A stretch of 64,000 bases of DNA from an uncultured virus (IMG/VR IMGVR_UViG_3300028591_000016) (taxonomy: Duplodnaviria; Heunggongvirae; Uroviricota; Caudoviricetes). The stretch lies in IMG/VR virus record IMGVR_UViG_3300028591_000016; one strand, 5' to 3'. The translations under genes and the position numbers were made by a program. Shown here in pieces: positions 22,105 through 41,323 of the stretch; the first letter of the stretch is position 1; every line of letters begins with the position of its first letter. The notes beneath the pieces are model-generated. The model searched no databases. It was given only the letters and a program-made list of their open reading frames with translations, and was not told where the DNA came from.

Positions 22105-23538
22105 TCAGGCGGATGCTCCCACATTCTTCAGGCGTCCGGAGCTGATGAACTTGTCAGCCCTGAGCTCTGCCCTCATGTGGGTGATGGTGTGCTCCTTGAG
22201 GTCCCTGGTGATTGCAGGGTTCTCGATGGTCCACACCTCAACAGGCGAGGTCATGCACATCCAGACATGCTTGAGGTCCAGAAGGAATGCGTCACCGTAG
22301 ACTGCAGTGTCAACAGTCTTTCCAGTGTAGTTGTAGGTGAGGTTTCCGGACATCATGATCGGGAGGTTCATGTAGGAGCTGAGTGCCATACCGACATCGC
22401 GTCCCTCGTTGGTCTTCATTCCGCCGATGGACATGGTCGTGTACATGGAGTCAACATAGATGTTGTTGGCCTTGCACAGCTGGTTGAGCTTGTTCCACAT
22501 GAGCGGAGACATGACCCACAGCTTGTCAGTGTAGTCACCCTCCCAGTTGGTCAGGCAGTTCATGTACAGATTGTCGAACATTCCGAGAGAAGGCACAGAG
22601 CCCTCTGCGTCCTCGACCTGTGCGTCGTAGTTGTTCCTGACATGGGTGTTGGTTCCGGTCCAAACTCCATTGGAATCGATATCATTATCCGCGAATCCGA
22701 GCTTCCTTCCCTGTCCGCTGTTCATCTGACCCTGGTATCCTCCGGCCATGTCTCCCTCAAGACCTCCCCAGGGGAGGTAGTTGTTGAGGTTGTCTCCGGA
22801 TGCGACCTCAGTACCGCTCGCAAAGATCCTTGCGAGTCCGTTGAGCGAGGTCTCCTGACCCTGATACATGGGCTGGGTCCTCTTGTCCGCCCTGTTCGCG
22901 AAGGCGATGGGCCTGAGGATGGTCTTGTCGGTGAGATCTGCGTAGTTCTTTCCAATCAGGTCGATGTACTGCTTGTAGGAAGCGGTATCATCCTTACCCT
23001 CAAGGGCCTTCAGTCCGAGACCGTAGTCGTAGGGCAGAGGGAGCTCCTTGTAGGGGACCCTGATCATGTCGTAGTCCGTCTTCACAGAGTTGGGAATCTG
23101 TCCATCGGGCACGGTGGCTGCACCGAGTCCCATGAAGGTTCCGTCGGGGTATGCAGTGCTGTCAAATACCCTGGAATTGTTGGGTCCCATGAGGAACTCC
23201 TCTGCGAGTCCGTATGACGCATACTCGGTAACGAGCCTCATTCCCTCCCAGTCGTATGCCCTCTTGGAAAGGCACGAGGAGACCGCTTTAGATGTGAACA
23301 TCGCTGCGGTAACATCCATTCCGAACTTGGGGTTGAAGAAACCTCCGGAGTATCCGGTGTTATTGAGACCGCCGTCAAAGACGGGGGCGCCTGCAGACCT
23401 AGCGAAAGAGCCGTAGAAGGCACCGTAGCCGCCGTCGTAGAAATCATTGATCAGCTGACTGCAACCCTCAGAGGTCGGCTCATAAGTGGTAGTGATCTTT
23501 CCATCACTCCTTCTCTGAAACTGTCCTGTTCCTGCCAT
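22105..23538 (-). CDS. major capsid protein (HK97 fold, archaeal tailed-virus type)
   Basis: Position after protease and scaffold; FNPKFG..V..., LSKRAYDWEGMRLVT, SYMNLPIM, DAFLLDL..V, MRAELRA..F...GRLKN resemble halovirus/magrovirus-like MCPs. Confidence 0.85.
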   Translation of the reverse strand: MAGTGQFQRRSDGKITTTYEPTSEGCSQLINDFYDGGYGAFYGSFARSAGAPVFDGGLNNTGYSGGFFNPKFGMDVTAAMFTSKAVSSCLSKRAYDWEGMRLVTEYASYGLAEEFLMGPNNSRVFDSTAYPDGTFMGLGAATVPDGQIPNSVKTDYDMIRVPYKELPLPYDYGLGLKALEGKDDTASYKQYIDLIGKNYADLTDKTILRPIAFANRADKRTQPMYQGQETSLNGLARIFASGTEVASGDNLNNYLPWGGLEGDMAGGYQGQMNSGQGRKLGFADNDIDSNGVWTGTNTHVRNNYDAQVEDAEGSVPSLGMFDNLYMNCLTNWEGDYTDKLWVMSPLMWNKLNQLCKANNIYVDSMYTTMSIGGMKTNEGRDVGMALSSYMNLPIMMSGNLTYNYTGKTVDTAVYGDAFLLDLKHVWMCMTSPVEVWTIENPAITRDLKEHTITHMRAELRADKFISSGRLKNVGASA

Positions 23539-23615: not shown

Positions 23616-23825
23616 TCAGCGGCCCTCCTGACGCTTGGCCATCGCAGAGTCGATGTCGGCCGTGAAGCCGGGGGAAGAGAGTGCCTTCCTTATCTCCTCT
23701 GTGTTGTCCAGCCCCGCGCTTGCACGGTAAGGGGAGTCCTGGTGAAGCACCGGGACCCCCCCCTCCGACTTGCATATCGCGAAGGACTCGTTGAGCGATT
23801 CTATGTGATGTCCGCGAGCGATCAT
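23616..23825 (-). CDS. small scaffold-like protein (69 aa)
   Basis: ATGA-coupled; immediately upstream of MCP; ends ADIDSAMAKRQEGR. Confidence 0.6.
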   Translation of the reverse strand: MIARGHHIESLNESFAICKSEGGVPVLHQDSPYRASAGLDNTEEIRKALSSPGFTADIDSAMAKRQEGR

Positions 23826-26749
23826 GGCTTCTTAGGAGCCTTGATTGCGTCAATCATATTGCCGTACTCCGTGCTCCTATCCTCCTTAGTCGTTGCATTG
23901 TCCAGATTCGTCGTATCATACCCGGCAAGAGCTGCTGCTCTATCTGCGTTCGTAAGCGCGGATGTCAGCTTGTATTTCTTACCCTTGTACGCGTTGCCGT
24001 AGTTGTGGGTTATCATCGAAGCGTCACCCCCAATCGCCTTTGAAGCCCTTGTTCTGGGATCTATGCTTGCGCCGGTCATGATGTTGCTTGCAGCCGAAGT
24101 GATATCCTCAGCATCATTGAGCAACTCCTCAACTGTCTTTTGCGAGGTATCATATCCCTTCATTACATTGGCCTTATACCATTTATCAAGCATATCACTG
24201 AATTCGGGGACGAAACCATAGGGTTTATTGCCCCCGCCTGTGATCAGTCCGCGGATCGGACTGGTGGCGAGGACCACATCCTGGTATCCCGCGCCATCCG
24301 CTCCAAAGATATCAGCCATTTGCGCACTGAGTGCGGCATTGTTCTTGAATGATCCCATGAAGTTCTCCTTAGCCTTATCGATCGCATCGAAATCGAGCTT
24401 GTCTGCGGAGGCTGCCTTCTCCCAAGCGGCAAGTGTGGTATCCATCTTGGATCCCGCAAAGTTAGGGATTGCCCCCTGCAGATGGTTCCTCAGATACGGA
24501 AGACCTGTCTTATTCATAGCGTAGAAGTCATCACCTAACTTGAATGCAGGCGAATAGTATGAGGAGAAGGTACCGGTGAATATATCCTTTGGCATATTCA
24601 GCGACTCACCCTCCGTATACTCCGGAATATATTGGTCCGCCATTATCTTCTGAGGATCATAGGTCTTCCTACCGATCTTGAATGCCTGCGTGGTGGGATC
24701 CATAAGGAACTTCTTCGCCTTGACTAACTGTCTCGCAAACTCATGCTGAAGGTAGGGGTTTGCATCTCCATACATATTGCCCGTGGATGCCATCTGGAGA
24801 GTCGATGGGATGTTGATACCGGTCTTCTCTGACAGTGCCCCCGCAATAAGACGCAGCTTTTCATCTCTCTGAATCTCGTTGAAAAGGTCATCCAGCTTAT
24901 CTCCGTAAGGCATCCAGTCTATCATCCTGGCGGTCGGTTCATATTTTATGAGCTTGTCATACGCATCCAATGCACTATCAAACCCAGCGTCACCGGGGTT
25001 GACACCTATCCGTCTTGCAAAGAGCAGAGGTGCTACATTCCTTAAGATGGTCTCTGAATCGGTTATTGGGTTCGCTCTGGTACCTAACACGCCAGCGGAA
25101 TCCAGCGTTGCATCATCAAGACCGTATGCCTTCAGGAAATTTCTGATATCGTCTCTTGACGCATAGCTCCCCTTATCCATATCATACAGGTCTGCAAGCC
25201 GTGCAAGAATCTGCCACTGTTCCATCTCCTCTCCTCTCTTAGCTGCCTCATTCTGATATGCAAAGAAGTGAGGGATTATGCCCTTGAGGTTATTGACTCT
25301 CGTTTGAGTTGCATCATCTGCTACACCCTTAGCCGCCATCCTGTCCTTATCTGCTGATGCCCTTTGCTTGATCTTCTCCTTTTCGACATCGCCCAGAGAC
25401 AGGACTCTCTCAAAAGGCTCGGTATCGATCGGCTCATAGATCTTGCCTATGTCTATGCCGAATGACTTGAAGAGCGGCTCAGTATACTGTGCGCCTACAT
25501 TATTGTCGCAATATTTGACAATCTCATCGATAACAGGCTCATATGACTTCTCGATAGAGGTAGCGCCACGCTTCTGAAGGGCCCACATCGTCGAAAGGAC
25601 GTCTCCTACACGCATGTTCTTGACCGCATCGAAGGACCCGATCGACTTCTGGATGGTCTGGAACTGATCCCTCGCCATCTCGGTAGCAGACTTGGAAATC
25701 TTGTACCTCTTTCCATCGATTCCGGACTGGGTTCTCATCCTCTCATTCATAAGGTCATCGATGGACTTCTTGATGGGGTTGTCGCAGACCTTGAAGGACT
25801 CGGTGTCGATGTCCTTGTCCTCCGTGAGACCTTTCTCCTTATTATCCGTGATGATATCATCCATCTTTGCCCCGAGGAACAGATTAATCTGGATGTCAGG
25901 TTTCATCTCTTCCTCTGCACTGGCAGAGACGGGGACGGTGGGGTCGTTTGCACCTGGTTCCTCTGCGGCGGCCCCTTCTCCCTCCGCAAAGTTCTCATTT
26001 GCATCGCCTTTGTCACATTTCTCAATCTCGGTGGCCTCGGACCTTGTCAGAGCGTCAAGAAGCACCTCTGGAGATACCTCCTCTTCGCCGACTGCGTCCA
26101 TATCTCCCTCCGTTGCGAGCAGTTCATCTGCAAGAGGGTCACCCTCTCCCTCTCCTGCAAGTGCCTCGACAATTGCTTCCGGAGGGATTTCCTCATCTGG
26201 AACAGGAGCGGCGGCATCTTCTACAGGGTAGTTCTCCTCCACATACTCCTTTATGATGTCTGCAAGCTTCATGATTGCTTTAGGATCGCCTACCTGCACA
26301 AGTGCATCCTGAAGTGCCGCCAGCGTCTCATCTCCTCCGCCCGCGACATTCTCATCCGCGAACAGTCCAGGCATAGGAGGTGCCGCGGGAGGCATAGCGG
26401 CTGGCGCTTCGGGCATCGGGGGCATCGGAGGTTCGGCTCCCATACCCTCATCCATCGGTGCTCCCTCCGGTCCAGGTGGTACGCCCTCACCCTCCATTGG
26501 AGGCATCCCTCCATCCATCGGGGGTGCTCCTCCTGCCTCAGGAGGCATTCCAGGGGGCATTCCTCCGTCCATCGGAGGCGCCGCACCTCCTGCCCCACCC
26601 TCGATCTTCTGTGTAAGCCTTGCCGTATCGGCCTTGACAGAGTTGATCTCTGCCAAAATAGCTTGGAGCATTCCTACAGCAGACGCATCGCCGATATTGG
26701 CACCGTCTGCCTTGGAGAACTGCTCCCACGCAGTATCTTCGTTGGTCAT
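23822..26749 (-). CDS. large scaffold-like or internal head protein (975 aa)
   Basis: Between protease and MCP; Pro/Glu-rich N-terminal third, many hydrophobic-x-K-S sites, globular C-terminal half. Confidence 0.65.
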   Translation of the reverse strand: MTNEDTAWEQFSKADGANIGDASAVGMLQAILAEINSVKADTARLTQKIEGGAGGAAPPMDGGMPPGMPPEAGGAPPMDGGMPPMEGEGVPPGPEGAPMDEGMGAEPPMPPMPEAPAAMPPAAPPMPGLFADENVAGGGDETLAALQDALVQVGDPKAIMKLADIIKEYVEENYPVEDAAAPVPDEEIPPEAIVEALAGEGEGDPLADELLATEGDMDAVGEEEVSPEVLLDALTRSEATEIEKCDKGDANENFAEGEGAAAEEPGANDPTVPVSASAEEEMKPDIQINLFLGAKMDDIITDNKEKGLTEDKDIDTESFKVCDNPIKKSIDDLMNERMRTQSGIDGKRYKISKSATEMARDQFQTIQKSIGSFDAVKNMRVGDVLSTMWALQKRGATSIEKSYEPVIDEIVKYCDNNVGAQYTEPLFKSFGIDIGKIYEPIDTEPFERVLSLGDVEKEKIKQRASADKDRMAAKGVADDATQTRVNNLKGIIPHFFAYQNEAAKRGEEMEQWQILARLADLYDMDKGSYASRDDIRNFLKAYGLDDATLDSAGVLGTRANPITDSETILRNVAPLLFARRIGVNPGDAGFDSALDAYDKLIKYEPTARMIDWMPYGDKLDDLFNEIQRDEKLRLIAGALSEKTGINIPSTLQMASTGNMYGDANPYLQHEFARQLVKAKKFLMDPTTQAFKIGRKTYDPQKIMADQYIPEYTEGESLNMPKDIFTGTFSSYYSPAFKLGDDFYAMNKTGLPYLRNHLQGAIPNFAGSKMDTTLAAWEKAASADKLDFDAIDKAKENFMGSFKNNAALSAQMADIFGADGAGYQDVVLATSPIRGLITGGGNKPYGFVPEFSDMLDKWYKANVMKGYDTSQKTVEELLNDAEDITSAASNIMTGASIDPRTRASKAIGGDASMITHNYGNAYKGKKYKLTSALTNADRAAALAGYDTTNLDNATTKEDRSTEYGNMIDAIKAPKKP

Positions 26750-26807
26750 GGTAATTACCAAACCGATTATTATCTTATGAATATAAAAAGGGAAAGCAGT
26801 TTAGGGG

Positions 26808-28257: not shown

Positions 28258-28628
28258 GCCTTATACTCCCTGACCTCGATAATGTCCTTTGCTTTCCCCC
28301 TATAGAGGGGTTGAATCTTCTTATCCGCGAGGATATTCTGTACGTATTCCCTCACGACCTCGTTTGCCAGCTCCCTGGTCACTTCCTCCCAGTCTAAGCC
28401 GATGCCCGCCTTGGAATCGATCACGATGTTGATCTTCTCGTCAGTCAGCGAGGTCTCGCAGGCGTCATTGAAGTCCCACCCTGTGCGATACCGCAGATTG
28501 TGCTCATTTCCATCCAATCTGTCCTGATTCAGCTTCACTTCTGCCCTATTGGATCCGTTTGCGATTATCGCTTTCTCGATCTTTGACATATTGGTGATCT
28601 TCAGCTCAAATCCGGACTCGTCGGTCAT
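28254..28628 (-). CDS. hypothetical protein in head operon
   Basis: ATGA-coupled to portal. Confidence 0.7.
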   Translation of the reverse strand: MTDESGFELKITNMSKIEKAIIANGSNRAEVKLNQDRLDGNEHNLRYRTGWDFNDACETSLTDEKINIVIDSKAGIGLDWEEVTRELANEVVREYVQNILADKKIQPLYRGKAKDIIEVREYKA

Positions 28629-30427
28629 GCCGCCATCTCCCTCATGGAGTCCTCGACCTCATCCTTGGATGCGTCCACGTCTGGGTCATCCCTTCTGGCA
28701 GTTCCTTTCTCGGGCGGACCTTCTGACCCGTCCCCGGGCATCCTTCCCATCGCCTCGGCCTGCTGCTGCATCATCATCTGCTGCATCTGCATCCTGCGGT
28801 CGACCTGCTGGACGGGCTCTCTGGAGTAGTAGAACTCTCCGTCCACATACTCCGCTTCATAACCGCCCTGGATCATCTTCAGCATCTCATCGATCTTGTC
28901 CATCCTCTTCTTGGCATCGGCCATCGCCTTGGTAGGCCTGTCAAGACGGAGATCCCAGTCAGTGATCTTCCCGGCCCACCATGACACGATCCAGTCACAT
29001 GCCCTGTCGATACAGGACATGGGGTGCATCAGATAACGGTCATAGACCGTGATCTGCTGACTCTCGTTGTTCATACCGCCCGAGGCCTCGACATCGCCTG
29101 CGAACAGGTTGGGTACTCCGATGTGCGCACAGAGCCTGTTACGGATATCGTCCTTGGATGCGAGCATATCCGATGTAGCATCGGACATCAGGTCGAGTAC
29201 CTGGGCGCGCATCTCTGCAACCCCTTGCAGTTGCGGAGGTGTGCATACAATCGGGATAGAATTGTCATTGGTCGCAAGGGTGTCCGTGATACCTCTTGCC
29301 ACCTCAATGGCGTCCTCATCATTGAATCCGGGAAGGATGACGATCTTACGGACATATCCGAACTTCCTCTTCTTCAGTTCCGACTTCTCGATGAAGTGCC
29401 AAGCCTGCAGGTCATCCTCTATGTCATACCATATCGGCATACCGTAGGTGAGTGCGGGTCTGAACCAATGGTCCTGATAGATCTCATGCTGCATGTAATA
29501 CCAGGACTGCCCGCTTGCACCGAGATTGTCTCCGACCTTATACGCTGCAGGGTATATCTCGATACCCTTCTCGGTCAGCTGGTTGATCTTGTCGATGTCG
29601 TCTGAAATGCTATACGGCGTATGCCTGTCTGCCAGAATGAATCCGTATTCACGACCGGGCGTACCCGAATCATCAAAGAGCTGCTGGACCTTGATGGGAT
29701 CCAGGGAGATGAACTCGACAGGGAACACCTCTTCCTCCTTCTTCCCCTCACCCAGGTCGATGGTGTGTATCTTTCCTGTCAACGGGTCGAAGATATCCCT
29801 CGCGATACAGAGCAGATACCCCTGATTGCAGAGATATTGCATCTCTGCATATGACCTTATGACCTCTTTCAGTGTCTGTCCGCTGTCATTCGCTTCATCA
29901 AGGAAGGATTTGCCATTCGGTCTCTTAAAATACTCCAGCTGGCTCTTATCCGGACGCCTTAACTCGGTCGACCCGCACTCTGGACATACACTTGTCATTG
30001 TACGCGTCTCATACCCGCATTTCGTGCATTTCTTAGCAAATTTCGGCTCGAATTTGAGGTCATAACGCAAAAGCTCAGTGACTGAACGGGAGATAAGTGT
30101 AGAAAGTATCGATACTTCCTGACGATACTGGTACATTCTTGCATACATGAACCACCAGTTATTCGTCTTGGTCACGCGGAAGTTTATATCGGTCGGTCTC
30201 TCCGTATTTCCTACCGCAAATCTGGAGGCGTGCGTCTGCGCATCCGCAGGGGGAATTTCCTCGGGATATGAATCGTAATATGTCCGCATAAGCGGGTCTA
30301 AACCTTTAGGAGTGGCTGAAAATACCTTTGCGGTTGTCTGAATCGGCCTCCCGATGAGGGGTGGAAGCGTTACTGATGGCATGTGATCACCGTTTATATA
30401 GTCCTGACTTTTTTTATATTTACTCAT
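28625..30427 (-). CDS. portal protein with Zn-ribbon insertion
   Basis: Follows TerL; YGMP, IRNRLCAHIGVPNLFAGDVEASGGMNNESQQITV; CTKC...CPEC insertion. Confidence 0.85.
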   Translation of the reverse strand: MSKYKKSQDYINGDHMPSVTLPPLIGRPIQTTAKVFSATPKGLDPLMRTYYDSYPEEIPPADAQTHASRFAVGNTERPTDINFRVTKTNNWWFMYARMYQYRQEVSILSTLISRSVTELLRYDLKFEPKFAKKCTKCGYETRTMTSVCPECGSTELRRPDKSQLEYFKRPNGKSFLDEANDSGQTLKEVIRSYAEMQYLCNQGYLLCIARDIFDPLTGKIHTIDLGEGKKEEEVFPVEFISLDPIKVQQLFDDSGTPGREYGFILADRHTPYSISDDIDKINQLTEKGIEIYPAAYKVGDNLGASGQSWYYMQHEIYQDHWFRPALTYGMPIWYDIEDDLQAWHFIEKSELKKRKFGYVRKIVILPGFNDEDAIEVARGITDTLATNDNSIPIVCTPPQLQGVAEMRAQVLDLMSDATSDMLASKDDIRNRLCAHIGVPNLFAGDVEASGGMNNESQQITVYDRYLMHPMSCIDRACDWIVSWWAGKITDWDLRLDRPTKAMADAKKRMDKIDEMLKMIQGGYEAEYVDGEFYYSREPVQQVDRRMQMQQMMMQQQAEAMGRMPGDGSEGPPEKGTARRDDPDVDASKDEVEDSMREMAA

Positions 30428-31838
30428 GGGTCGCAAATACCCTGCGACACCTGTACTCTGATGATACGCTTGTATCGATTGCTGCTACAAGCCTTCCTTT
30501 AGGTATCTCATCCATACCTTTAGCGACCGCGACACGGCCTTTGCCCGCCCTGAGGAACCGGTCCGTACCATAATGCAACGCATCCATCAGGTGGTCGTGC
30601 TCCTTCTCGGGCTTCCCTGTGAACTGTCCATCCTTATCGATTTCCCAGGAATATGAGGAGAATTCCATTATGTGATACTGGCACTTTGGATGAACGTGGA
30701 TATTGTAGGTCTGGATCCTCTGAATCGCATTCACAACCGAGTCCTTTCCCTTTAGGGCCGCCTCGAGATTGGGCAGCGCATACCTCTTGTAATTGCCGCC
30801 CTCATTCACGATCAATCCGTTCCTCAACTCGTAGATGGACTTGGGCTCTGCACAATCCGCAACGATACGGTCGAAGGCATACCCCATCTCCGTGATCTTC
30901 TTTGCTATATCTGCGTTGGTCATGCCCTTCTGATACATCTCATCTATGATCCACATCTCATGGTTCTTCACATCCACATATGCAACGGATAACGCATTAT
31001 ATGAGACGGAATACCCGAAATCCAGTCCCACTGCCTTCGCAATCCCCGGGCGATGAGCAATCTCTTCTGGATTGAAACTCTCTACCGTCCAATTCTCATA
31101 GATTTGACCCTGCGATGACCCCCATTCTCCATGTACGATGACCTCTGCCGCCTTGGGGTTGTATATCTCCAGATTGCGGTAATATTTTTTATCGTCATCC
31201 GTAAAAGCAGGGTTATCCAGATATGTCGTCGTAAACGCCAGCGTATCCTCCCTTTCCTGATCGAAGAACTGCTCCTTCAGCCAATGGAACTTATGCCAGG
31301 GGTTGAAAGAGAAGAAGAACTTCTTCTTCAGCCCGGTTTCAGGGGGAATTGCACGGATGGATGCCTGTACTTTGGTGATTGCGCCGAAATCGGTGATCTC
31401 AAAGGCCTCCTCGAACCACACCCAACAGAAATAACAGTTGGGAGGCGCACGCAAGGACGCCAATTTCAACGGATCATCCAATCCTCTGAATATAATAGTC
31501 TGCCCGGTCGGTTTATATGTGAACTGCATGGGCTGCATGGTGCAGTTCCACTTATCCAGCACCTCCAGGTCATATAACGCGTTCTTGATGTCCTGATAAC
31601 ATGACCCAGATATGGTATCGAAGATCTTCCTTATGACCACCGCAGAGGAGTGGGGTTGTTGCATGATATGCACAACAAGCCATAATGCCACAAAATAGGA
31701 TTTCCCGCTACCCTTCGATCCTTTGATGACAACATTCTCTTTATTCGTGTACCAAGGAAGAAGATATGCGTGTGATAGGGCAACCTTTGGGTCAAATATC
31801 TTCTTTCCGTCCTTGGTCACCACGAATTTAATTGCCAT
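30420..31838 (-). CDS. terL: terminase large subunit (PBSX-like)
   Basis: Walker A KGSKGSGKS, Walker B WVWFEEA, FNP, RNase H GLDFGY, ADCAEPKSI, HDHLMDALHY. Confidence 0.95.
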   Translation of the reverse strand: MAIKFVVTKDGKKIFDPKVALSHAYLLPWYTNKENVVIKGSKGSGKSYFVALWLVVHIMQQPHSSAVVIRKIFDTISGSCYQDIKNALYDLEVLDKWNCTMQPMQFTYKPTGQTIIFRGLDDPLKLASLRAPPNCYFCWVWFEEAFEITDFGAITKVQASIRAIPPETGLKKKFFFSFNPWHKFHWLKEQFFDQEREDTLAFTTTYLDNPAFTDDDKKYYRNLEIYNPKAAEVIVHGEWGSSQGQIYENWTVESFNPEEIAHRPGIAKAVGLDFGYSVSYNALSVAYVDVKNHEMWIIDEMYQKGMTNADIAKKITEMGYAFDRIVADCAEPKSIYELRNGLIVNEGGNYKRYALPNLEAALKGKDSVVNAIQRIQTYNIHVHPKCQYHIMEFSSYSWEIDKDGQFTGKPEKEHDHLMDALHYGTDRFLRAGKGRVAVAKGMDEIPKGRLVAAIDTSVSSEYRCRRVFATHE

Positions 31839-32274
31839 CTGTATCCTCACTCGGAAGAACCTCAAATTCCACATCGACTACGGAATCCTCTTCCTTGGCA
31901 TCATCTATCGCAATCGCGACCTCTGATGCGAGAGCCTGTTTTATGTCCTCGGGGAGGTCATCCATATTCGAATAGAACGTGGGAAGGTCCACCGTGATCT
32001 TCTGTTCTCTGACCGGCTCCATTCCGCCCATTTTGACCAACCATTCTGCGGACTTTACGTCTCCCCCGAGTGCCTGGTTTGCCATCCTGACTGCAATACC
32101 CGTCTGCACATCCAGATTCTTATCTCTGAGGGACATCATTGACATACGCCCATCAAGCTTAACAGGCACACCCTCGCCTATGGGGGAATTCATGACGATC
32201 GTGACTATCTCCTTCAGCGTATTCTCTCTTCTGACTTCCGGATCCTTTGAACTTGCAGCATCTGGCACATACAT
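31828..32274 (-). CDS. putative terminase small subunit
   Basis: Directly upstream of terL; NQALGGDVKSAEWLVKMGG helix motif. Confidence 0.65.
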   Translation of the reverse strand: MYVPDAASSKDPEVRRENTLKEIVTIVMNSPIGEGVPVKLDGRMSMMSLRDKNLDVQTGIAVRMANQALGGDVKSAEWLVKMGGMEPVREQKITVDLPTFYSNMDDLPEDIKQALASEVAIAIDDAKEEDSVVDVEFEVLPSEDTDGN

Positions 32275-32278
32275 GGAA

Positions 32279-32761
32279 TCACCTCTTCAGAACGCCATCC
32301 TCAACCATTCTTCCAAGCGGCGTGGTCTCCCCGCACCTCTTACAGTACATAGGCAGTGTAGCAAGTGTTGTCATGAATGTGGTATGGCAATGAGGGCATG
32401 TCCAGCCCTGCGAATCCTCATCCACACAATCCGAACCGTTATGCCCAACGCCATATGTGTTGTAATAAAGAACAGGCAGAGAGTTCATCTCGGCGAGCGA
32501 GAACTCAAAATATGTGCCATCCACATTGCGTCTGGCCCTTTGTCTTTCACGCCACTCTTCCTCTACATCATTCTTCTCCATCCTGCGGATGAGAGCCGAT
32601 TCCCTGAACATTCTGCCCATACGCGCCTTGTTCACAGCCTCGGCATCCACCGATCTGAGAAGCATCTGCGGCTCAATGATACGTGCATTGGTGAAGAGGT
32701 CACGCTTAACGGCCTTATCCAGGTCCTGCCTGAAGGAATCACGGTAATAGTTTCTTCCCAT
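32279..32761 (-). CDS. Zn-ribbon protein
   Basis: CPHC...CKRC; own TATA-like promoter. Confidence 0.7.
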   Translation of the reverse strand: MGRNYYRDSFRQDLDKAVKRDLFTNARIIEPQMLLRSVDAEAVNKARMGRMFRESALIRRMEKNDVEEEWRERQRARRNVDGTYFEFSLAEMNSLPVLYYNTYGVGHNGSDCVDEDSQGWTCPHCHTTFMTTLATLPMYCKRCGETTPLGRMVEDGVLKR

Positions 32762-32793
32762 ACCCCTATATAAAGGATATGGGATTAAAATGT

Positions 32794-35700
32794 TTAGGCT
32801 TGCCTATCCTCTATTTTCTTATCGATATCCCACTCACTCTCATCGAAATCAGCAGATCTGTAGAAATAACCTACACGCTCCCTTAATGTACGCTTTGGAC
32901 CCATTACCTCTGCATCCTTACGTTTTTGCCGCCTGACATGCTGCGACAAGAGGGTCTTTGGTAGACCTGTTGCCTCATCTATCACGGGCTCTCCTGTTTT
33001 ATCATCCAATAACGGTACACGAATGACGGGCCAACCGTATTTATTCGGTACAACAGGTAATGTAGACGTGTCTATATCATGCGTTATTGGTGACCCTGTG
33101 GTTTCATCCAGGGTCGGTTTTCCTGTGGTTTCGTCCAAAATCGGGATGCGTATCTGATGGTTGGGCACCCCTACCCCTCCGCTCGCCTCATACATCTCGG
33201 CAAGCTTGGCTGCATACTCCTCTATGTCTTCCATAGAAGATTGTTCATCAATTCTCATCCCAGGAATTATGGGCAATCCCTTTGCTCTTCCATTATTGAT
33301 TATCAATTTTACTGCATCCGCTATCTGTTTTTTGTTTAACCATGAGAGATCATAATCTCCGGAGGTTTCCTTCATGTTAAGCGTGGGCATGCTCATCAGA
33401 ACATCAGGCGTAGACTCCATCCTCACCTCTCCAGCATCATCACGAATGGGATTGCCCTCCTCATCTACCATGGGCTTGAAGGTAGTCATCGAGTCTGATA
33501 ATCCTTGCTTCCTTGCAATCATATCTGCAAGCTTGGTTGCGACAGCATCTATCTCCTCCTGCGTGGAGCTGGGGTTTAATCCAAATAGTACATCCTCACG
33601 AGTATCTCCTGCTCTAGGAGTGATTGCCTGCTCCTCTATAGGCTTACCCTCATTCCTCTTTGCATTCTTTTCACTAAGCTTTCTCCGCTTCGTATATCTC
33701 ATTGTTCTTCTGCTGTTATCCGCCTTAAATTCAGGGCTGGATATGATTCTTGATAGGATGTGTGCAATCTGATCCTTATCCAATCTAGTTATATCATACT
33801 TATCTATCCCTTTCCCTCCTTCATTGGTAGGTAATGGGATAAGCCCACTGCCATCCGGGAAGAACGCATCTGCAATAGCAGTTGCCTCAGCCGCTTTTGC
33901 ACCCTCCTCCGATACTTTTTTACGACGGAGATATGCATCCGTGCTGGTATTGATTCTCCAATCATTGAGTAGGTCTGCAAGCTTATCAATGGTCAACCCT
34001 TCATCAAATAATGCAAGTTTATCCGCTCTTCTCTTATCCTTGAGCGGCTTATCGACTGCTTTCTGAGAAAATCCTTCTTTTTCACCGGCAAGAGGCACAT
34101 GCAGAGGAGGTATTTTCACATCGAAATTTGTATCAAGACTGTCAATATCCACTGGGCCCCAGCCTTTCATCTTTTTCTTATTGTGTAGGCGAACCATCTC
34201 CATTGCTCTGCCCATGGCTGAAAATTCTCTCCACTTACGGGAGTCTGTACCGAACTCATTACGAAGCTTCTCATAGAATTCCGGAAGCTTACCCTGCTTC
34301 TGCGCATCTATCGACTCGTAATACAGGCCAATATAGTTCTTAAGGAGGTCTCCTGCATTTGCAATCATGTCTCCTTGGTCTTCCCCATTGTTTGCCCACT
34401 CTTTCGGTAAGGCCTTCCAATCATACGCATAATGGGCTCTGTCCTCTGCCGCCTTCTCGTCTCTCTCCCACTGCGCCTCTTCCTGTGCCACTCTATCCGA
34501 AAGAGATAACCTGTCTTTCTCCGGTATAGGCATACCTAGGACATTTCTTGCGAAATTGAGCTCCTTATCATCAACAGGCCTATAATAAGGGAACTGAGAA
34601 TAGATGATATCCTCTGCATTGGATCCAAGAGTGCCCAACAGATCATCTGTCGCATCATCGGTATAGAGGTCCTCATCCATCAGGTTATATGGCTCGAGTG
34701 CTAGCCTATCCTCACCTGAATTGTATCTTAGCCACTTGCTTCCTATCTCCCTGTTTAATTCAGGCCATTTCCGAAGATACCTATCCACCAACAGCTTAGT
34801 ATCATCATCCATGTCCGCATTTGCCCCGTTTTCAGCACCCCTCATCAGCTTATCCTTTGCAAGGGCCAATATCAGGTTCTTACGAACATTCTCGGGATCG
34901 AAATCTGCAAGGAGGTTGTTATATCTCTCTTTTTCAACGAGATAATGGTCATTCTCCTCCCTGTTCTCATTATCCGTATCCATCTTTTTATCAATCACAT
35001 CACTCTTTTCGGTAACATTGTCCTCATCTACCTCTGAATTATTCTGATCAAGAGATACTGCAGAGTCCCCATATGTCAATTTGGGCTCATATTTCTTATT
35101 ATCCCCCTTTAAATCATCAATCTCATCCTCTAAATCCTTAATCTGACGCGAATAGTCCATAAAGTCTTCTTGATCCACGTCCCTACGATTACGTAGATAT
35201 TTCAATTCGCTTATCTTTCTCTTCTTTTCAGCGATAGCCGCCTCATTTGCAAGAATCTTCTCTGTATACTGTATGTTGTTTGCATAGGTCTGGGGACGTG
35301 TCATCGAGCTCTCGTCCCCATCCAAAAATCTGAAGATATCATACTTATTTGTCTTTAGATCATCAACTGTCTTGTCTTCAAAGTTCTTTAACCCGATTTC
35401 ACGGTATGAGTCGTCTCCCAGGTACCTCTCAACAAAATCCTTCATCTGCTGGGCCCTGCTTTTCTGCATCTCTCTTGGCTTCCCAAGCAGTATTGGATTC
35501 GAACCGTCAGAGGCCAGGGTTTGCGCAAAGCTCCTCGCAAGAGCCTCCATTTTATCAATGTTGACCCCTGTTGAGTCGAGATCCCCATCCCTCATTGCTG
35601 TGATTATATCATCAAATTTTGCCAAAAGCGCTGCATTGGCCATGTTTTTCTTTATGCTATCCTCGGTTGCATCCATCTTTTTTGAACCGCGATACCTTTG

Positions 35701-37899
35701 GAAAACGTCGAGCAAATACTCCGGAGGGTATTCTGATAGGAGATGGCCCTCTCTGAGGAAGCCCATCGTCCTCAATAAGTCAGCATCCGCATCGGTTATT
35801 GTCTCGGTGTCCTTCAAACGTTTCAGCATGTCCTGGACATCATCGTTCATCCAGCTCCACTGGCCTTTTTTCCTGTCTATCGCATTGATGTCTTCCGTAT
35901 CCCACTCCGAAAAATTCTCTTTATTATACTTCTTCCCCCAGATATCCTTAATCACCTCTTCTCCATTCTCATCAACATCCTTTATGTGATACCTTGCATT
36001 ATCTGTGGGGGCGCGATGAATCGCATAGAGCATCATATCCCACAAAGAAGGGGTCCTTCCTGCATACTTCTTGTTAACAGTGTTGTACCCACTTACGATA
36101 TCATCTAACTCTCCAGTCAAACTATTCACAAGGTTCCTCAGATACAGTCCTTTTTGCGACTTGGGGAGATTTTCAACATCCTCTTCTGATGCCAATCCGT
36201 ATTTCCTTGCTAAATCGGCACGCGGCATGAAGTAGTCCACAATCGAATTATCATCGCCTTTATCCAATTGAAGGATCTTCATATACATCTTTGCGGCTTC
36301 ACTTGAGCCTAATATCTGGGATAGGATTACCTCTGGGGACAGGGAAAGTCCTGTCTTCTTCAAAAATGCGTTGTCCTTATCATCAATGGCAAGCGCACCC
36401 GCACCCATACTTTGCTCAATAGCGTCTGCAATACGACTGAGCCTGTTTCCATATGCCGAAAGAATAGGCGAATTTCCCTGCTCTCCCTTCGCGGTATAAT
36501 ATGCTGCTTTATCCCTTATCGCGTTCAGATATGCATTGTTCTGTATCGACAGGATCTTCTCGGCCTCTTCTGGGGGCAATCCTCCTACCCCAGACGCGCC
36601 CTGGGCACCGCCAATAGGGGTGACCAGCCTTCTTATCTTATTGTAATTGGATGCTGCACGTCCCAGGTCTTTTACAGACACAGGGGCAGTTCCCTCGGAC
36701 CCCATCAGATCTGAGGTGACGAGTCTTTTTATCGATGTACCCAGACTCAAGTCCCCCATCGAACCTGTGAGTGCAGCCGTAAGAACGGCCTCAAGGTCCG
36801 TCGGGTTGGTAATGGTCTCCATCGCCGAGGTTACCGGTGCATATTTGAACAGGGTCTCTATCGCCCGTTGCTCCTTACGGTTTTTCTCGGCCTCCCCTTT
36901 TGCAAATGCCTTCTTCCCTGCTTTTGTGTGCAATTTCAATTTTTTTAAGAATCTTTCCGCAGAGATGTTGCCCTTCATTGCTTCATTCTGCATCTGCATG
37001 ATCAATAATGCACGGGTCAATGGCACACGGAATTGCTTTGCCCTCTCTGCAGGATCATAACCATGCGCCTTCATTGCAGCATTGAACCAATTTGTAAAGA
37101 TCTGCCTTCCATCCGCATTGTATGTATATTTCGGTGCCTCCCCCTCTTTGGTCGTCTCATATGGCACCCTGTATTGGATATTTCCTTCTGGGTCTTTCAC
37201 TTCTGTGGCCAACTGCAACGCAGCTGGGTATTCGGGGAGAAGGCTCCAATCCGCACCCTTCACCTCTGCATTATCCGCCAAGCCCATTGCGGCAAGCAAT
37301 GCAAGTGAAAAGGACCTCTGATACCCCTCCGAATAATTGGCTCCGTCCTCATACTTTTGAAGATTCTTCACTACATTTGGGATATAAGGAAGGGGTACAC
37401 CATATGACCTGGAATTCACACCGGGACCGCGGGGATCATAACTCGATCCGATCCCCGTATTGCTCGGACCCCATCCCGCATCAAAGTCAGTCCTTCTCAC
37501 TTCCGGAACAATCGCAGAATCCCTCTCGTTGAGCAGGTCATCCATCCCTACCTGATCCATATACCTGTTCAATGTGGAATAGTTAGACCTTCCGCCCAGG
37601 CCCAGATTGATGCCTTCCCCCGAATCGGGATCATAGCCTTCCCCGACCAGCTCCGGGAAAGTGTCCTCCTCACCTTCCTCCGGATCTGCATCATAATCTA
37701 CAAAAGACAGTCTTCCTACAGGCTCTCCCTTCGCAGCCTTCTCATCACGAGCCTTCCATTCCGCCATATGGCTCTTGATTTCCTCTTGTTTCCTATCCAG
37801 CTCCTGGATTTCGGCTGCCTTCTTTGCATTATGCATGGTCAGGTCGTCGGCACCTTTCGCCTTCTTCTTTCTGATAAAAGGCTCATATTGTATAGTCAT
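32794..37899 (-). CDS. giant putative internal virion or ejection protein (1701 aa)
   Basis: True start MTIQYEPF ~25 nt after TTTTTATA box; the track's longer start overlaps another gene; no recognisable domain. Confidence 0.75.
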   Translation of the reverse strand: MTIQYEPFIRKKKAKGADDLTMHNAKKAAEIQELDRKQEEIKSHMAEWKARDEKAAKGEPVGRLSFVDYDADPEEGEEDTFPELVGEGYDPDSGEGINLGLGGRSNYSTLNRYMDQVGMDDLLNERDSAIVPEVRRTDFDAGWGPSNTGIGSSYDPRGPGVNSRSYGVPLPYIPNVVKNLQKYEDGANYSEGYQRSFSLALLAAMGLADNAEVKGADWSLLPEYPAALQLATEVKDPEGNIQYRVPYETTKEGEAPKYTYNADGRQIFTNWFNAAMKAHGYDPAERAKQFRVPLTRALLIMQMQNEAMKGNISAERFLKKLKLHTKAGKKAFAKGEAEKNRKEQRAIETLFKYAPVTSAMETITNPTDLEAVLTAALTGSMGDLSLGTSIKRLVTSDLMGSEGTAPVSVKDLGRAASNYNKIRRLVTPIGGAQGASGVGGLPPEEAEKILSIQNNAYLNAIRDKAAYYTAKGEQGNSPILSAYGNRLSRIADAIEQSMGAGALAIDDKDNAFLKKTGLSLSPEVILSQILGSSEAAKMYMKILQLDKGDDNSIVDYFMPRADLARKYGLASEEDVENLPKSQKGLYLRNLVNSLTGELDDIVSGYNTVNKKYAGRTPSLWDMMLYAIHRAPTDNARYHIKDVDENGEEVIKDIWGKKYNKENFSEWDTEDINAIDRKKGQWSWMNDDVQDMLKRLKDTETITDADADLLRTMGFLREGHLLSEYPPEYLLDVFQRYRGSKKMDATEDSIKKNMANAALLAKFDDIITAMRDGDLDSTGVNIDKMEALARSFAQTLASDGSNPILLGKPREMQKSRAQQMKDFVERYLGDDSYREIGLKNFEDKTVDDLKTNKYDIFRFLDGDESSMTRPQTYANNIQYTEKILANEAAIAEKKRKISELKYLRNRRDVDQEDFMDYSRQIKDLEDEIDDLKGDNKKYEPKLTYGDSAVSLDQNNSEVDEDNVTEKSDVIDKKMDTDNENREENDHYLVEKERYNNLLADFDPENVRKNLILALAKDKLMRGAENGANADMDDDTKLLVDRYLRKWPELNREIGSKWLRYNSGEDRLALEPYNLMDEDLYTDDATDDLLGTLGSNAEDIIYSQFPYYRPVDDKELNFARNVLGMPIPEKDRLSLSDRVAQEEAQWERDEKAAEDRAHYAYDWKALPKEWANNGEDQGDMIANAGDLLKNYIGLYYESIDAQKQGKLPEFYEKLRNEFGTDSRKWREFSAMGRAMEMVRLHNKKKMKGWGPVDIDSLDTNFDVKIPPLHVPLAGEKEGFSQKAVDKPLKDKRRADKLALFDEGLTIDKLADLLNDWRINTSTDAYLRRKKVSEEGAKAAEATAIADAFFPDGSGLIPLPTNEGGKGIDKYDITRLDKDQIAHILSRIISSPEFKADNSRRTMRYTKRRKLSEKNAKRNEGKPIEEQAITPRAGDTREDVLFGLNPSSTQEEIDAVATKLADMIARKQGLSDSMTTFKPMVDEEGNPIRDDAGEVRMESTPDVLMSMPTLNMKETSGDYDLSWLNKKQIADAVKLIINNGRAKGLPIIPGMRIDEQSSMEDIEEYAAKLAEMYEASGGVGVPNHQIRIPILDETTGKPTLDETTGSPITHDIDTSTLPVVPNKYGWPVIRVPLLDDKTGEPVIDEATGLPKTLLSQHVRRQKRKDAEVMGPKRTLRERVGYFYRSADFDESEWDIDKKIEDRQA

Positions 37900-37949: not shown

Positions 37950-37957
37950 TAAAGGGT

Positions 37958-38817: not shown

Positions 38818-38852
38818 ACTCCTTCTAACAGAGTGTGGTTATTTAAATCAAA

Positions 38853-39227: not shown

Positions 39228-39258
39228 GCAATTAAAATATGGATTTATAAAGAATGGG

Positions 39259-39354
39259 TCAAAGATCGAAATAACCGCCTAGCGCAAGAACGATTGCGCC
39301 TATGATACCCACTAGGATTTCCATGACCATTACCGGCTCCATCGTATCACTCAT
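39259..39354 (-). CDS. 31-aa single-TM peptide, not in ORF track
   Basis: MSDTMEPVMVMEILVGIIGAIVLALGGYFDL; ATTAATAT box upstream. Confidence 0.5.
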   Translation of the reverse strand: MSDTMEPVMVMEILVGIIGAIVLALGGYFDL

Positions 39355-39436
39355 CTATCGATTTTCTTATGAGATATTAATGCTTTGGCCGAAACTCTGC
39401 CCTTAACTTATATACTCACACCTCTTTTCTCACAAT

Positions 39437-39976
39437 ATGTTTGACATTAACGCAAGGATGGAACAGTGGTCTGCCGCCAATCGCGTACATTCCACTGAAG
39501 AACTGACAAAATCACTCCAACAGCCCTCCGAGCCGACCGCAACGGAGCCTATGACAAGGAGTGCAAGCATCCAAGCTCGCGCCGCACCGTTCCGTAAGTC
39601 GAAAGGGCCTGTTTTTGACATCAACAGCCGTATGGATGCGTGGAACAAGTCCGAGAAGGCCGGCGACACCGCGACCTACCAGAATCTGTCCTCCAGCGAC
39701 CCCTTCAAGAAGGGTCTGGAGGAGCCTTCGGACGCTGTGCAGATGCTTAGCTCCATGCCGCCCGAGCTTGTGATGGATATGGTGGAGATGTGCCTGGAAA
39801 AACTCGGTTCTGCATCCGAAGAGCCTGGACCACAGGATGATTCCCCTGAATCTGAGCCTAGCCCTAAGGATGATGAACCTAAGGACAAGGATGAGTCCAA
39901 GTCTGATGAGAAATCCGAGTCTGATGAGTCGGATAAGCCAGACACAGAGGAAAAGGACGACAAGGATGCTGAGTGA
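39437..39976 (+). CDS. acidic putative internal head protein with FDINxRMxxW repeat
   Basis: FDINARMEQW and FDINSRMDAW; LTKS, MTRS, FRKS, WNKS sites; TTATATA promoter. Confidence 0.7.
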   Translation: MFDINARMEQWSAANRVHSTEELTKSLQQPSEPTATEPMTRSASIQARAAPFRKSKGPVFDINSRMDAWNKSEKAGDTATYQNLSSSDPFKKGLEEPSDAVQMLSSMPPELVMDMVEMCLEKLGSASEEPGPQDDSPESEPSPKDDEPKDKDESKSDEKSESDESDKPDTEEKDDKDAE

Positions 39977-39977
39977 C

Positions 39978-40511
39978 ATGACCTGGACATTCCTTGACAG
40001 ATTGGGCGCATGGAAGGATGCGACCCGTGAGCCGGAGAGGACCAGTTCCTTCCTCAGAAAAGCAGAGGTAGAAAAAGAGGAGAAACTCCCCGATAATCCT
40101 ACCACGGACAATACAGTCAATCCAGCGACCGAGGGCGCTCCGGAAATCCCTGTAGAAAGTATGAAACCGACTCCCACTCCCACAGACCACATGATCGAAA
40201 AGACCGAGGTCGAGAAGGGAGATGGTGAAGTAGACCCTCATGATGGATGCGGATGCCCCGTTTCCGCCGCACTCCATAGCATCAAAGAAGAAGCGGAAGC
40301 CGCTGACCTCTACAACAAGCGGGCAAACAAGGTCGATGACCCACATGCCCGCGAGGTCTATCGCGACATTGCAAAGGAGGAGATGGTCCACCTGGGAGAA
40401 GCTTCTCAACTCCTCGCGGAAGCTGACCCAGAGCTTGCCTCCGAAGTCCCCAAGGGGATGGAGGAGGCGAGCGGCTCCAAAGTTGCATTCAAAAGACCGA
40501 AAAGAGAGTGA
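39978..40511 (+). CDS. ferritin-like protein (encapsulin-cargo/rubrerythrin half-domain) with disordered N-terminus
   Basis: SIKEEAEAADLYNKRA...D...REVYRDIAKEEMVHLGEASQLL...DPE: E-x6-Y and EExxH di-iron motifs. Confidence 0.8.
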   Translation: MTWTFLDRLGAWKDATREPERTSSFLRKAEVEKEEKLPDNPTTDNTVNPATEGAPEIPVESMKPTPTPTDHMIEKTEVEKGDGEVDPHDGCGCPVSAALHSIKEEAEAADLYNKRANKVDDPHAREVYRDIAKEEMVHLGEASQLLAEADPELASEVPKGMEEASGSKVAFKRPKRE

Positions 40512-40754
40512 TCAACCGTGTCTATTATGGATCTCGATACTCGAGACCCTAAACCAATTCTCTTCAAGATAATCCAGGTCTTCTTTTGACAAAAGCCAGG
40601 GATATTTCTCGCAAAGAAGGGTGATTCCCGCCATATGGCCGCCGATCTCGGAAAGATGTATCCTCATCTGCTCTCTCACAGACCTGCCGAACGGTGATTT
40701 TAGGAACTCCTTAGGATTTGTGATCGGATCGAAGAATAGCTTATCCTCACTCAT
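40512..40754 (-). CDS. hypothetical protein (80 aa)
   Basis: MSEDKLFFDP..., coupled to upstream gene. Confidence 0.6.
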   Translation of the reverse strand: MSEDKLFFDPITNPKEFLKSPFGRSVREQMRIHLSEIGGHMAGITLLCEKYPWLLSKEDLDYLEENWFRVSSIEIHNRHG

Positions 40755-40911
40755 CTGCCTCGTCATCTTCCCGAAGGGAATATTGCACTTCCGCACCGCA
40801 TTTCGTGCAGTGCAGGAAGGTCACGATCCCTTCGCCTTCACCATAGACTTCGTCATAATTAAAATCACTGTCCCAACACAGCTCTCCTCCGCAATACCAA
40901 CATTCTGCCAT
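40747..40911 (-). CDS. Zn-ribbon microprotein (54 aa), not in ORF track
   Basis: MAECWYCGGELCWDSDF...LHCTKCGAEVQY. Confidence 0.7.
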   Translation of the reverse strand: MAECWYCGGELCWDSDFNYDEVYGEGEGIVTFLHCTKCGAEVQYSLREDDEADE

Positions 40912-40913
40912 GA

Positions 40914-40929
40914 ATATGATATATCATAT
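40914..40929. promoter_or_regulatory. 16-bp palindromic operator
   Basis: ATATGATATATCATAT, perfect palindrome, 2 nt from start codon at 40911. Confidence 0.6.
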
Positions 40930-40980
40930 CCGTATTTATGACTTCACACCGTTTAAATAGTCACACCAGGATTCAATAGC

Positions 40981-41283
40981 ATGACTGAAGACTCTGAGAT
41001 CGAGAAGATCGTCAAATCCGGAATTATGAGCTTTATGAAGGGGGAAAAGATAGAGGAGCCTGTCGACAAGGCAAATGAGGACGAGACCCCCGCCGAGGAA
41101 CCGATTGCTGACGCGCCTGGTGAAGCAAACTCCCCAGAGACTGCGGAGGATATCCCTGCCGAAAAGGAAGAGATTACGCGTGAGGATCTTTTCGAAAGAT
41201 GCACCGGCATGCCCATTGATGAGGCGTCAGAAGACGTGATCATGTCCGCAATCGAGGACGGGCTGACCGCATTGGGGCTTTAA
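40981..41283 (+). CDS. acidic putative internal head protein
   Basis: IVKS, FMKG, VDKA sites; TTTAAATA promoter. Confidence 0.65.
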   Translation: MTEDSEIEKIVKSGIMSFMKGEKIEEPVDKANEDETPAEEPIADAPGEANSPETAEDIPAEKEEITREDLFERCTGMPIDEASEDVIMSAIEDGLTALGL

Positions 41284-41303
41284 GCTCACAAACCCTTTTA
41301 TAA

Positions 41304-41323
41304 GATATATCATATGATATATC
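41304..41323. promoter_or_regulatory. 20-bp palindromic operator
   Basis: GATATATCATATGATATATC, between TTTTATAA box and ATG 41324. Confidence 0.65.

Follow-up and report, generated by a model that had tools for sequence, protein, structure and literature searches.

Introduction

Encapsulins are thought to be related to the HK97-fold viruses, and a functional bridge between the two has been missing so far. A concrete candidate is the locus described here, in a 64,000-nucleotide stretch of DNA from an uncultured virus (IMG/VR record IMGVR_UViG_3300028591_000016; the whole of this stretch is called the window). Positions 39978..40511 of its plus strand encode P0001, a protein of 177 amino acids (aa) that by its sequence belongs to the EncFtn family of half-ferritins, which is best known as encapsulin cargo. 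The original prediction, made from the nucleotide sequence alone, had taken the gene product for a virion cargo. We arrive at a related proposal, to which we assign a probability of roughly 0.45: that P0001 is a head-internal protein, targeted by terminal peptides and tied to a giant and an acidic protein of the same virus, and would be the counterpart, within a viral capsid, of an encapsulin cargo.

EncFtn (PF22277) is represented by R. rubrum Rru_A0973 and by proteins of H. ochraceum and P. furiosus (PFC_05175). In the R. rubrum protein two chains contribute to the di-iron centre, with Glu32, Glu62 and His65 together with Tyr39; an entry site consists of Glu31 and Glu34, and the formation of decamers is iron-dependent (PMC5012862). 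The C-terminal peptides by which encapsulins load their cargo, about 10 residues long and preceded by a flexible linker, are described in general terms in PMC8229669. P0001 resembles EncFtn in its predicted two-helix-plus-one fold, in six metal positions with identical spacing, in its acidic character and in having a flexible extension with a short terminal peptide. However, it is the product of a tailed-virus gene that is neither beside nor fused to an encapsulin shell, its long tether and best-conserved peptide are N-terminal rather than C-terminal, and it carries both a Cys-Gly-Cys motif before helix 1 and terminal peptides common to viral proteins. The PfV-type archaeal encapsulins (2e0z) are likewise archaeal, and in PfV a physical link joins the half-ferritin to a shell of HK97 fold, whereas in the window the half-ferritin has a gene of its own, and the protein with the HK97 fold is the 477-aa major capsid protein (MCP) of a genuine virus, encoded together with portal, terminase and protease. 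Finally, the free-standing EncFtn-like proteins of the Methanomassiliicoccales (~93-101 aa), the probable host lineage, share the domain and ligands of P0001 at ~40% identity, but lack its N-terminal module, tether, Cys-Gly-Cys and tail and lie in ordinary chromosomal neighbourhoods.

The Dar proteins of phage P1 (DarA/DarB) and the internal proteins and Alt of phage T4 are head-internal or ejected proteins. MuF-domain proteins are head components that carry fused, delivered effector domains, and large multidomain proteins encoded beside virion genes have been predicted to be packaged and injected (PMC5512222). The window is similar to such systems in its giant hypervariable protein beside virion genes, its small accessory proteins, its short putative targeting peptides and its prohead protease gene; another protein, P0109, is similar in bearing an effector-like domain on portal and MuF parts. 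The window differs in that no MuF domain was found in it and in that its packaging is a proposal.

No earlier report of a virus-encoded EncFtn was found in the literature searched; a compendium of methanogen viruses and its supplements fall outside that literature and may bear on the question. The words 'ferritin' and 'rubrerythrin' have 0 occurrences in a survey of polyvalent proteins (PMC5512222). A 2026 paper speculates that virus- or host-encoded cargo-like proteins might co-assemble in procapsids and calls the idea testable, naming no example in the part of its text that was available (PMC13669383).

Results

An EncFtn-like protein with a putative di-iron site

The P0001 gene and its parts are as follows.

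39978..40511, plus strand: EncFtn-like half-ferritin gene, P0001; 177 aa; start codon ATG 39978, stop codon TGA 40509-40511, alternative start at 39966
39987..40058, plus strand: N-terminal module (N-module), residues 4-27; a predicted short helix (5-15), then a ...PERTSSFLR island; conserved
40059..40247, plus strand: acidic Pro/Thr-rich linker, residues 28-90; disordered (pLDDT < 50), length and sequence varying among homologues
40248..40256, plus strand: Cys-Gly-Cys motif (C91, C93) just N-terminal to helix 1, defined in a 26-sequence alignment
40257..40469, plus strand: EncFtn-like domain, residues 94-164, which holds E104, E105, E107, Y112, E135 and H138
40470..40508, plus strand: short basic C-terminal tail, residues 165-177, with five Lys or Arg and one Asp or Glu

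The start is uncertain by four residues, since a database homologue that is 98% identical begins at the in-frame ATG located 12 nt further upstream (39966).

The original prediction had described a two-helix half-ferritin with E-x6-Y and EExxH ligands. Both strings are present (E105, Y112, E134/E135 and H138) and are invariant in 26/26 sequences of a family alignment, which consists of P0001 and 25 homologues from a word-indexed search. The predicted kinship with encapsulin-type ferritins was also borne out: the EncFtn-like Pfam family PF22277 scored 28.6 bits (cut-off 27) over residues 96-139, and 25/25 database homologues carried a PF22277 flag in a precomputed annotation column. Among solved structures, the closest by sequence was 5n5e, the EncFtn domain of P. 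furiosus (7.8e-8 for P0001 by itself and 6.6e-11 for the family profile), followed by the PfV particle 2e0z (8.6e-7 and 8e-10, respectively), and NE0167 was also among the best matches. Other ferritin-like families fell below their thresholds. Rubrerythrin (PF02915) reached 18.6 bits against a cut-off of 22.8 and covered only half of its profile (positions 6-61 of 137), the Ferritin-like Pfam family reached 16.7 bits, under its cut-off, and the Pfam scan of P0001 contained no rubredoxin domain.

The agreement with EncFtn extends to the individual ligands. E105, Y112, E135 and H138 align with those of P. furiosus EncFtn, and their spacing (7, 30, 3) equals that of Glu32, Tyr39, Glu62 and His65 in R. 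rubrum. E104 and E107 stand at the positions of the entry-site residues Glu31 and Glu34, and both are invariant, so that all six metal-site positions are conserved throughout the family alignment, a point on which the original prediction could have failed. In a wider set, the pattern E-x6-Y...ExxH was kept in 162/164 domain segments. Judged in this way, P0001 belongs to the EncFtn-like half-ferritins, is encoded by a virus and has an intact, putatively ferroxidase-type di-iron site. No Linocin_M18 shell gene was present among the 64 window open reading frames (ORFs) scanned with Pfam, and because it lacks a shell, P0001 stands outside encapsulin systems and is not part of one.

An AlphaFold2 (AF2) model gave three helices (94-118, 122-149 and 151-164) at pLDDT ~90 or more and a short N-terminal helix (5-15) at pLDDT ~61, with residues 16-90 (pLDDT < 50) and 168-177 disordered. 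The first 95 residues are acidic (21 Asp or Glu against 11 Lys or Arg; isoelectric point 4.5), in keeping with the disordered acidic N-terminus that had been predicted. When the model was compared with solved structures by Foldseek, as had been proposed with the prediction, the top rows were all EncFtn-family structures (EncFtn of P. furiosus, R. rubrum and H. ochraceum, NE0167, and EncB/EncC of M. xanthus), with TMt 0.62-0.84 and rmsd 0.8-1.9 A over 57-64 residues, but with E-values of at least 0.023. In an exhaustive structural alignment, EncB, rubrerythrin and EncFtn scored Z 8.7-9.5, level with unrelated helical hairpins (Z 8-10). Since the hairpin is a common arrangement, we base the family assignment on sequence and ligands and not on fold.

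Two further features distinguish the sequence. The Cys-Gly-Cys motif (C91, C93) is at least 90% kept in the family alignment and could be an additional metal or redox site of the viral subfamily; it is not visible in the printed N-terminal sequences of forms fused to giant proteins, nor in the host forms. The strings LRKA, IEKT and VEKG, which had been singled out as sites in the N-terminus, are indeed present and would be putative cleavage sites, but LRKA is kept in only 4/18 and IEKT in 2/18 of the long-form homologues.

The long forms (18/26) consist of an N-module of ~25 residues, a variable Pro/Thr-rich tether, Cys-Gly-Cys and the domain; short or truncated forms (8/26) begin immediately before the domain. 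At the C-terminus, 21 of the 26 end in a tail of the DIDK..DRQ type and four, including P0001, in a short basic tail, with one having neither; the 13-residue basic tail of P0001 directly adjoins the domain. The nearest outgroup proteins, P0029 (53% identical in the domain) and P0030 (41%), retain the N-module.

The domain is fused to giant and portal proteins in relatives

The window is a tailed archaeal virus, probably of gut methanogens. Its closest annotated relative is vir335, a Caudoviricetes sp. whose record names Methanomassiliicoccales as the host, and tblastn against vir335 recognised the portal, protease and MCP. The prediction of an HK97-fold virus held, the MCP being 35% identical to that of vir335 and AF2 and Foldseek agreeing on a capsid fold. 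The MCP model (pTM 0.76) gave 175 Foldseek matches at E <= 0.001, topped by capsid proteins of tailed phages and related particles, including a gene transfer agent and phage satellites, with HK97 itself and some encapsulins lower down. A strict-anaerobe host lineage, likewise predicted, is supported by relatives of the capsid protein in metagenome-assembled genomes (MAGs) of the Methanomethylophilaceae: four genome-collection contigs carried MCP relatives, three in 'Candidatus Methanomethylophilaceae archaeon' MAGs and one in a Lachnospiraceae bin. The last is a 5.3-kb contig (L015) with a 35%-identical MCP relative, and its placement is probably a binning artefact.

The genes around P0001 that bear on the comparisons below are these.

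39437..39976, plus strand: upstream acidic protein, 179 aa; stop 1 nt before ATG 39978; two N-module copies and a poly-acidic tail
32794..37899, minus strand: giant protein gene, 1701 aa from the probable start; the ORF is open to 38154 (1786 codons); DIDK..DRQ-type end
31828..32761, minus strand: two small genes, of 148 aa and 160 aa, that separate the giant and terminase genes; conserved synteny anchors
30420..31874, minus strand: terminase large subunit (TerL); Terminase_3 1.8e-44, phrog_3717 2.3e-59
28625..30436, minus strand: portal protein; 41% identical to the vir335 portal, 25% over 474 aa to the portal part of P0109
26808..27824, minus strand: prohead protease homologue; 37% identical to a vir335 gene annotated as prohead protease
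23822..26761, minus strand: 979-aa protein between the protease and MCP genes; Met/Pro/Gly-rich low-complexity region
23616..23825, minus strand: putative 69-aa ORF; overlaps the 979-aa gene at its stop (ATGA); the MCP gene follows after 77 nt
22105..23538, minus strand: MCP, HK97 fold, 477 aa; 35% identical to the annotated vir335 MCP

The minus-strand block (21501-39227) reads, in transcription order, a 124-aa gene, a membrane protein, a 75-aa gene, the giant gene, the 160-aa and 148-aa genes, TerL, portal, two small genes, protease, the 979-aa protein, the 69-aa ORF and MCP. The P0001 gene is the second of a plus-strand unit that diverges from it. The same layout, a pair of acidic and EncFtn genes beside a divergent giant, packaging and head block, was found in the window and in two relatives from metagenomes, L004 and L005. 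Homologues of the 148-aa and 160-aa genes occur in the same order in vir335, L004, L005 and two further contigs, L021 and L016.

L021, a contig of a Methanomethylophilaceae MAG, encodes TerL, portal, protease and MCP homologues that are 43%, 52%, 49% and 36% identical to those of the window. Here, the EncFtn-like domain forms the N-terminus of a 2040-aa protein, whose gene lies directly upstream of the 160-aa, 148-aa, TerL and portal homologues, which is the slot of the giant gene in the window. A search with the family profile of the MAGs that hold capsid relatives gave two viral-type copies, in L021 and L019; the syntenic case is a single one (n = 1). A second query found only these two viral-type copies among 261 genomes. 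In the 79-kb contig L019, a 327-aa ORF contains the domain; an 1181-aa ORF comes next and overlaps it, and the terminase gene is distant. The half-ferritin, free in some related viruses and fused in others, thus forms a fusion/fission pattern that would link its function with that of the giant protein.

A second fusion involves the portal. P0109 (778 aa, a single representative) comprises a portal part (phrog_18178, 4.2e-47), a half-ferritin that is 41% identical to P0001 over 71 aa and retains the ligands, and a MuF-like minor head protein. Its IMG/VR relative L012 has a portal-MuF protein without the half-ferritin insert. We regard the fusions in relatives as the strongest indirect evidence for a head-internal P0001.

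An exhaustive search with the domain gave 163 representatives at E <= 1e-3; its listing comprised the best 150, and 57 of these, the longer ones, were Pfam-scanned. Among the best 150 of 163, ten library representatives of 937-2314 aa had the domain at or near the N-terminus (residues 82-144 in P0145) and nothing else recognisable, and 16/35 of the mid-length relatives scanned were fusions of EncFtn with Linocin_M18 (PfV type). A profile of the giant fusions minus the domain matched no ORF of the window, L004 or L005, and BLAST likewise found none. In a quick and poorly resolved domain tree (71 columns), the window clade with P0029 and P0030 was supported at 99, the ten giant-fused domains and P0109 fell inside one 18-row group (support 82), and 15/16 shell-fused domains fell in a group separate from the viral forms (support 92).

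Fusions of this kind also fit an explanation in which the hairpin mainly serves for metal-dependent multimerisation of the giant protein and its partners, catalysis being secondary or lost. The domain stands at the N-terminus of otherwise unrelated giants and between portal and MuF parts, a helical hairpin is a generic packing unit that many unrelated structures match at Z 8-10, and EncFtn decamers depend on iron (PMC5012862). The invariance of every ferroxidase-centre and entry-site residue in the 26 homologues speaks against such a purely structural hub, and the retention of E-x6-Y...ExxH in 162 of the 164 segments argues for selection on metal binding, even though metal binding also drives assembly. 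We consider this explanation unlikely.

The giant gene is hypervariable (window 32794-38154, minus strand; L004 4277-7825, minus; L005 3358-7344, minus; L021 3758-9880, plus). The giant proteins of the window, L004 and L005 (1701, 1182 and 1328 aa) share only 46-77 alignable residues, with flanking genes that are 50-95% identical. A similar hydrophobic-basic peptide stands at both ends of the L004 and L005 giant proteins.

Terminal peptides are shared between P0001 and other viral proteins

Hidden Markov models (HMMs) of the terminal segments were searched against 881 six-frame ORFs. For the HMM of the N-module, built from EncFtn N-termini alone, the best non-self matches were the acidic proteins of the window, L004 and L005, with E-values of 2.7e-5, 1.9e-3 and 1.1e-2 for the three viruses. 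Each acidic protein has two copies of the module, and, reciprocally, an HMM of the acidic proteins found the EncFtn of L005 (8.6e-4).

The HMM of the DIDK-type tail, which is carried by 21/26 homologues, matched the C-terminus of the 69-aa ORF beside the MCP gene (residues 57-67 of 69, E 0.0036) and the end of the giant ORF (residues 1776-1785 of 1786, domain E 0.14). Both scores are modest, but chance is an unlikely explanation since both matches lie at a C-terminus. The distribution of the tail types differs among the three viruses: in the window the giant protein bears the DIDK type and P0001 the basic one, and in L005 it is the EncFtn that bears DIDK, with a basic …RVKKA end on the giant protein. 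In 6/10 of the giant representatives, a motif SF[RK]D[IV]... located after the domain is repeated at or close to the C-terminus.

Other resemblances were not upheld. Similarity to the N-module in the giant proteins, in a 1027-aa protein and at the N-termini of the scaffold-like proteins was seen by eye, with no HMM match, and an HMM of the four EncFtn basic tails did not find the tail of the 979-aa protein.

Docking on the major capsid protein and points against packaging

The N-module was docked on the MCP, using a 45-row alignment for the MCP and a 17-row alignment for residues 1-40 of P0001. The three runs gave ipSAE values of 0.54, 0.68 and 0.57 (median 0.57), the best of three controls gave 0.00, the pLDDT of the partner was 48 or higher, and the runs had at least 69% of their contacts in common. 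The mark used was reached by 116/157 solved complexes and 2/215 mismatched pairs, counts that are only roughly valid here since we used our own alignments; at ipSAE <= 0.60, it was reached by only 18/157 solved complexes and by both of the passing mismatches.

This places the modelled contact in a weak band of the docking passes, and it is one of several points that weigh against a head-internal P0001. The gene lies beside the head module and not inside it: it is ~0.75 kb from the end of the minus-strand giant, packaging and head block, on the opposite strand, and its own unit runs into small genes and then, from 41566, genes for a clamp-like protein, a primase, ParB, helicases and recombination; early genes, too, typically lie in such a place. 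No EncFtn-like gene was found in vir335 by tblastn. P0001 does not itself carry the DIDK-type tail, which in the window ends the giant protein, its own tail being of the basic type. The likeness of that tail (…AFKRPKRE) to that of the 979-aa protein (…AIKAPKKP) was a post-hoc pattern, with three such C-termini in 819 ORFs, and was dropped. Smith-Waterman comparison of three P0001 segments with 40 window proteins and their shuffles gave a best z of 3.5, which is not meaningful, and an HMM of the SF[RK]D[IV]... motif had no match among window ORFs, leaving any likeness to window motifs undetected. The giant protein (1701 aa) had no Pfam or PHROG domain and no usable Atlas match, and is a candidate virion protein. 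Finally, no PHROGs family matched P0001 at E <= 0.001, the domain alone giving only phrog_7573, of unknown function, at E 0.061.

The original claim of a virion cargo is thus supported in part. In its favour are the motifs shared with acidic and giant proteins, the giant and portal-MuF fusions and the weak docking pass; the position outside the head module, a C-terminus that does not look like an encapsulin loading peptide and the shell-less host genes described below count against it. The survey of gene context in related viruses, which had been proposed with it, was similarly divided, with synteny in L004 and L005 and a fusion in the giant slot of L021 on one side and the absence from vir335 on the other.

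Shell-less EncFtn-like proteins in the host order

A family-profile match to an EncFtn-like domain was found in 48/151 genomes of the host order, and a Linocin_M18 shell in only 1/151. From these counts we conclude that the domain functions without a shell in this order, and that the designation 'EncFtn-type' does not in itself imply encapsulation. A small ORF showing the ligand pattern was present at all 11 host loci that were fetched (L023-L033); the called lengths were 93-169 aa, mostly ~93-101 aa. Neighbours were scanned for six of these loci: a desulfoferrodoxin gene adjoins one of them, and an AhpC/TSA gene is near another. The host protein probably acts in oxidative-stress defence.

These findings weigh against packaging and make a captured host gene a serious rival. 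P0001 could be an auxiliary protein, derived from the free-standing host half-ferritin, that acts in the cytoplasm of the infected cell, perhaps early, and handles Fe(II), oxygen or peroxide stress so as to keep the strictly anaerobic host productive; the N-module would then bind a cellular or viral non-structural partner. The frequency of the domain in the host order and the rarity of the shell, the two stress-related host neighbourhoods, the identity of ~40% between viral and host domains and the place of P0001 at the head of the replication-gene strand all fit this. So do fusions of the domain elsewhere: P0072 joins it to a LigD-type primase-polymerase (PrimPol plus domain), and P0163 to AAA_18, a LigD phosphoesterase and a phosphoheptose-isomerase-like part, which hints, from domain composition, at a link with DNA-end processing and likewise counts against a role in the head. 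However, an auxiliary function leaves unexplained why the N-module recurs in the acidic neighbour and the tail in the giant protein and in the small ORF adjoining the MCP gene, and it accounts neither for the fusions in the giant slot and between portal and MuF nor for the weak docking pass on the MCP. We hold it to be the main rival, quite possible but somewhat doubtful. Two results stand even without packaging: viruses of methanogens have a diverged version of the shell-less EncFtn-like protein of their hosts, and that host family is common in the absence of encapsulin. Each matters for the annotation of the EncFtn family.

The same genomes bear on whether the viral protein targets a host encapsulin, as a hijacked cargo or a poison of the nanocompartment. 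The reputation of the family as encapsulin cargo and the 16 Linocin_M18 fusions among 35 mid-length relatives lend this idea some ground. But a shell was found in a single one of the 151 genomes and none among the window ORFs scanned, the actual host probably has no encapsulin, and the C-terminus of P0001 does not look like a loading peptide. We consider it highly improbable.

A model for a head-internal half-ferritin

In the model that we favour, P0001 would belong to a head-internal set that also includes its acidic neighbour and the hypervariable giant protein. Entry into the procapsid would be by way of short conserved peptides: the N-module on its long flexible tether and, in most relatives, also the DIDK..DRQ-type tail. 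The N-module would probably contact the inner face of the HK97-fold capsid protein, and the protein might be trimmed by proteolysis. Inside the capsid, the domain would assemble around Fe(II) into dimers or oligomers and catalyse its oxidation; it might also be delivered together with the DNA. The oxidation may limit damage by Fe, O2 and H2O2 to the genome of a virus with a strict-anaerobe host.

In a specific form, the model would have an HK97-fold virus load an encapsulin-type ferroxidase into its procapsid through a tethered peptide that binds the inner face of the MCP, as a counterpart, and possibly an evolutionary source, of cargo loading in encapsulins. We judge this to be rather unlikely. 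If it were true, methanogen viruses would have an iron-oxidising enzyme packed with the DNA in their virions, and one domain would have been shuffled among a free gene, the N-termini of giant head-associated proteins, portal-MuF fusions and encapsulin shells. If P0001 is packaged by any route, it would be the first enzyme from the encapsulin-cargo repertoire to be found in a virion, and viruses of strict anaerobes would have a novel means of protecting their genomes.

Additional observations on the locus and its relatives

Contigs identical to the window were present in two metatranscriptome libraries (runs X4 and X5). They cover 21500-41499, including 39609-40064, and in X4 there was cover in 30/30 bins. 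Those animal-gut samples contain the virus or its RNA; such contigs can give neither level nor strand nor a single transcript, DNA is possible in such libraries, and they are not evidence on the timing of expression.

The 979-aa protein is inferred from its position to be a scaffold. A gene caller's 877-aa version of it sits on a contig of 95,812 bases, from which it follows that the virus genome exceeds the window. A homologue search with this protein returned only itself. The genes in the protease-MCP interval of the window (23822-26761, minus strand), L021 (16065-18092) and L016 (8070-9977) encode a conserved N-terminal helix followed by a long low-complexity region rich in Met, Pro, Gly and Asp. 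The length of the interval protein is 979 aa in the window, 675 in L021, 635 in L016 and 470 in vir335, and it may be an unusual scaffold.

Scans of IMG/VR with P0001, its family alignment, the MCP and P0036 gave nothing related beyond a weak ferritin-like match (L001) and an identical MCP fragment (L011); P0109 was the only query to find a relative, L012. The match in L001, a 78-kb IMG/VR contig, is a 101-aa ORF (4448-4753, plus strand) that is 34% identical to the P0001 domain over 62 residues. It lies among genes that, judged from their translations, are tail-fibre-like, ~3.4 kb upstream of a 332-aa ORF.

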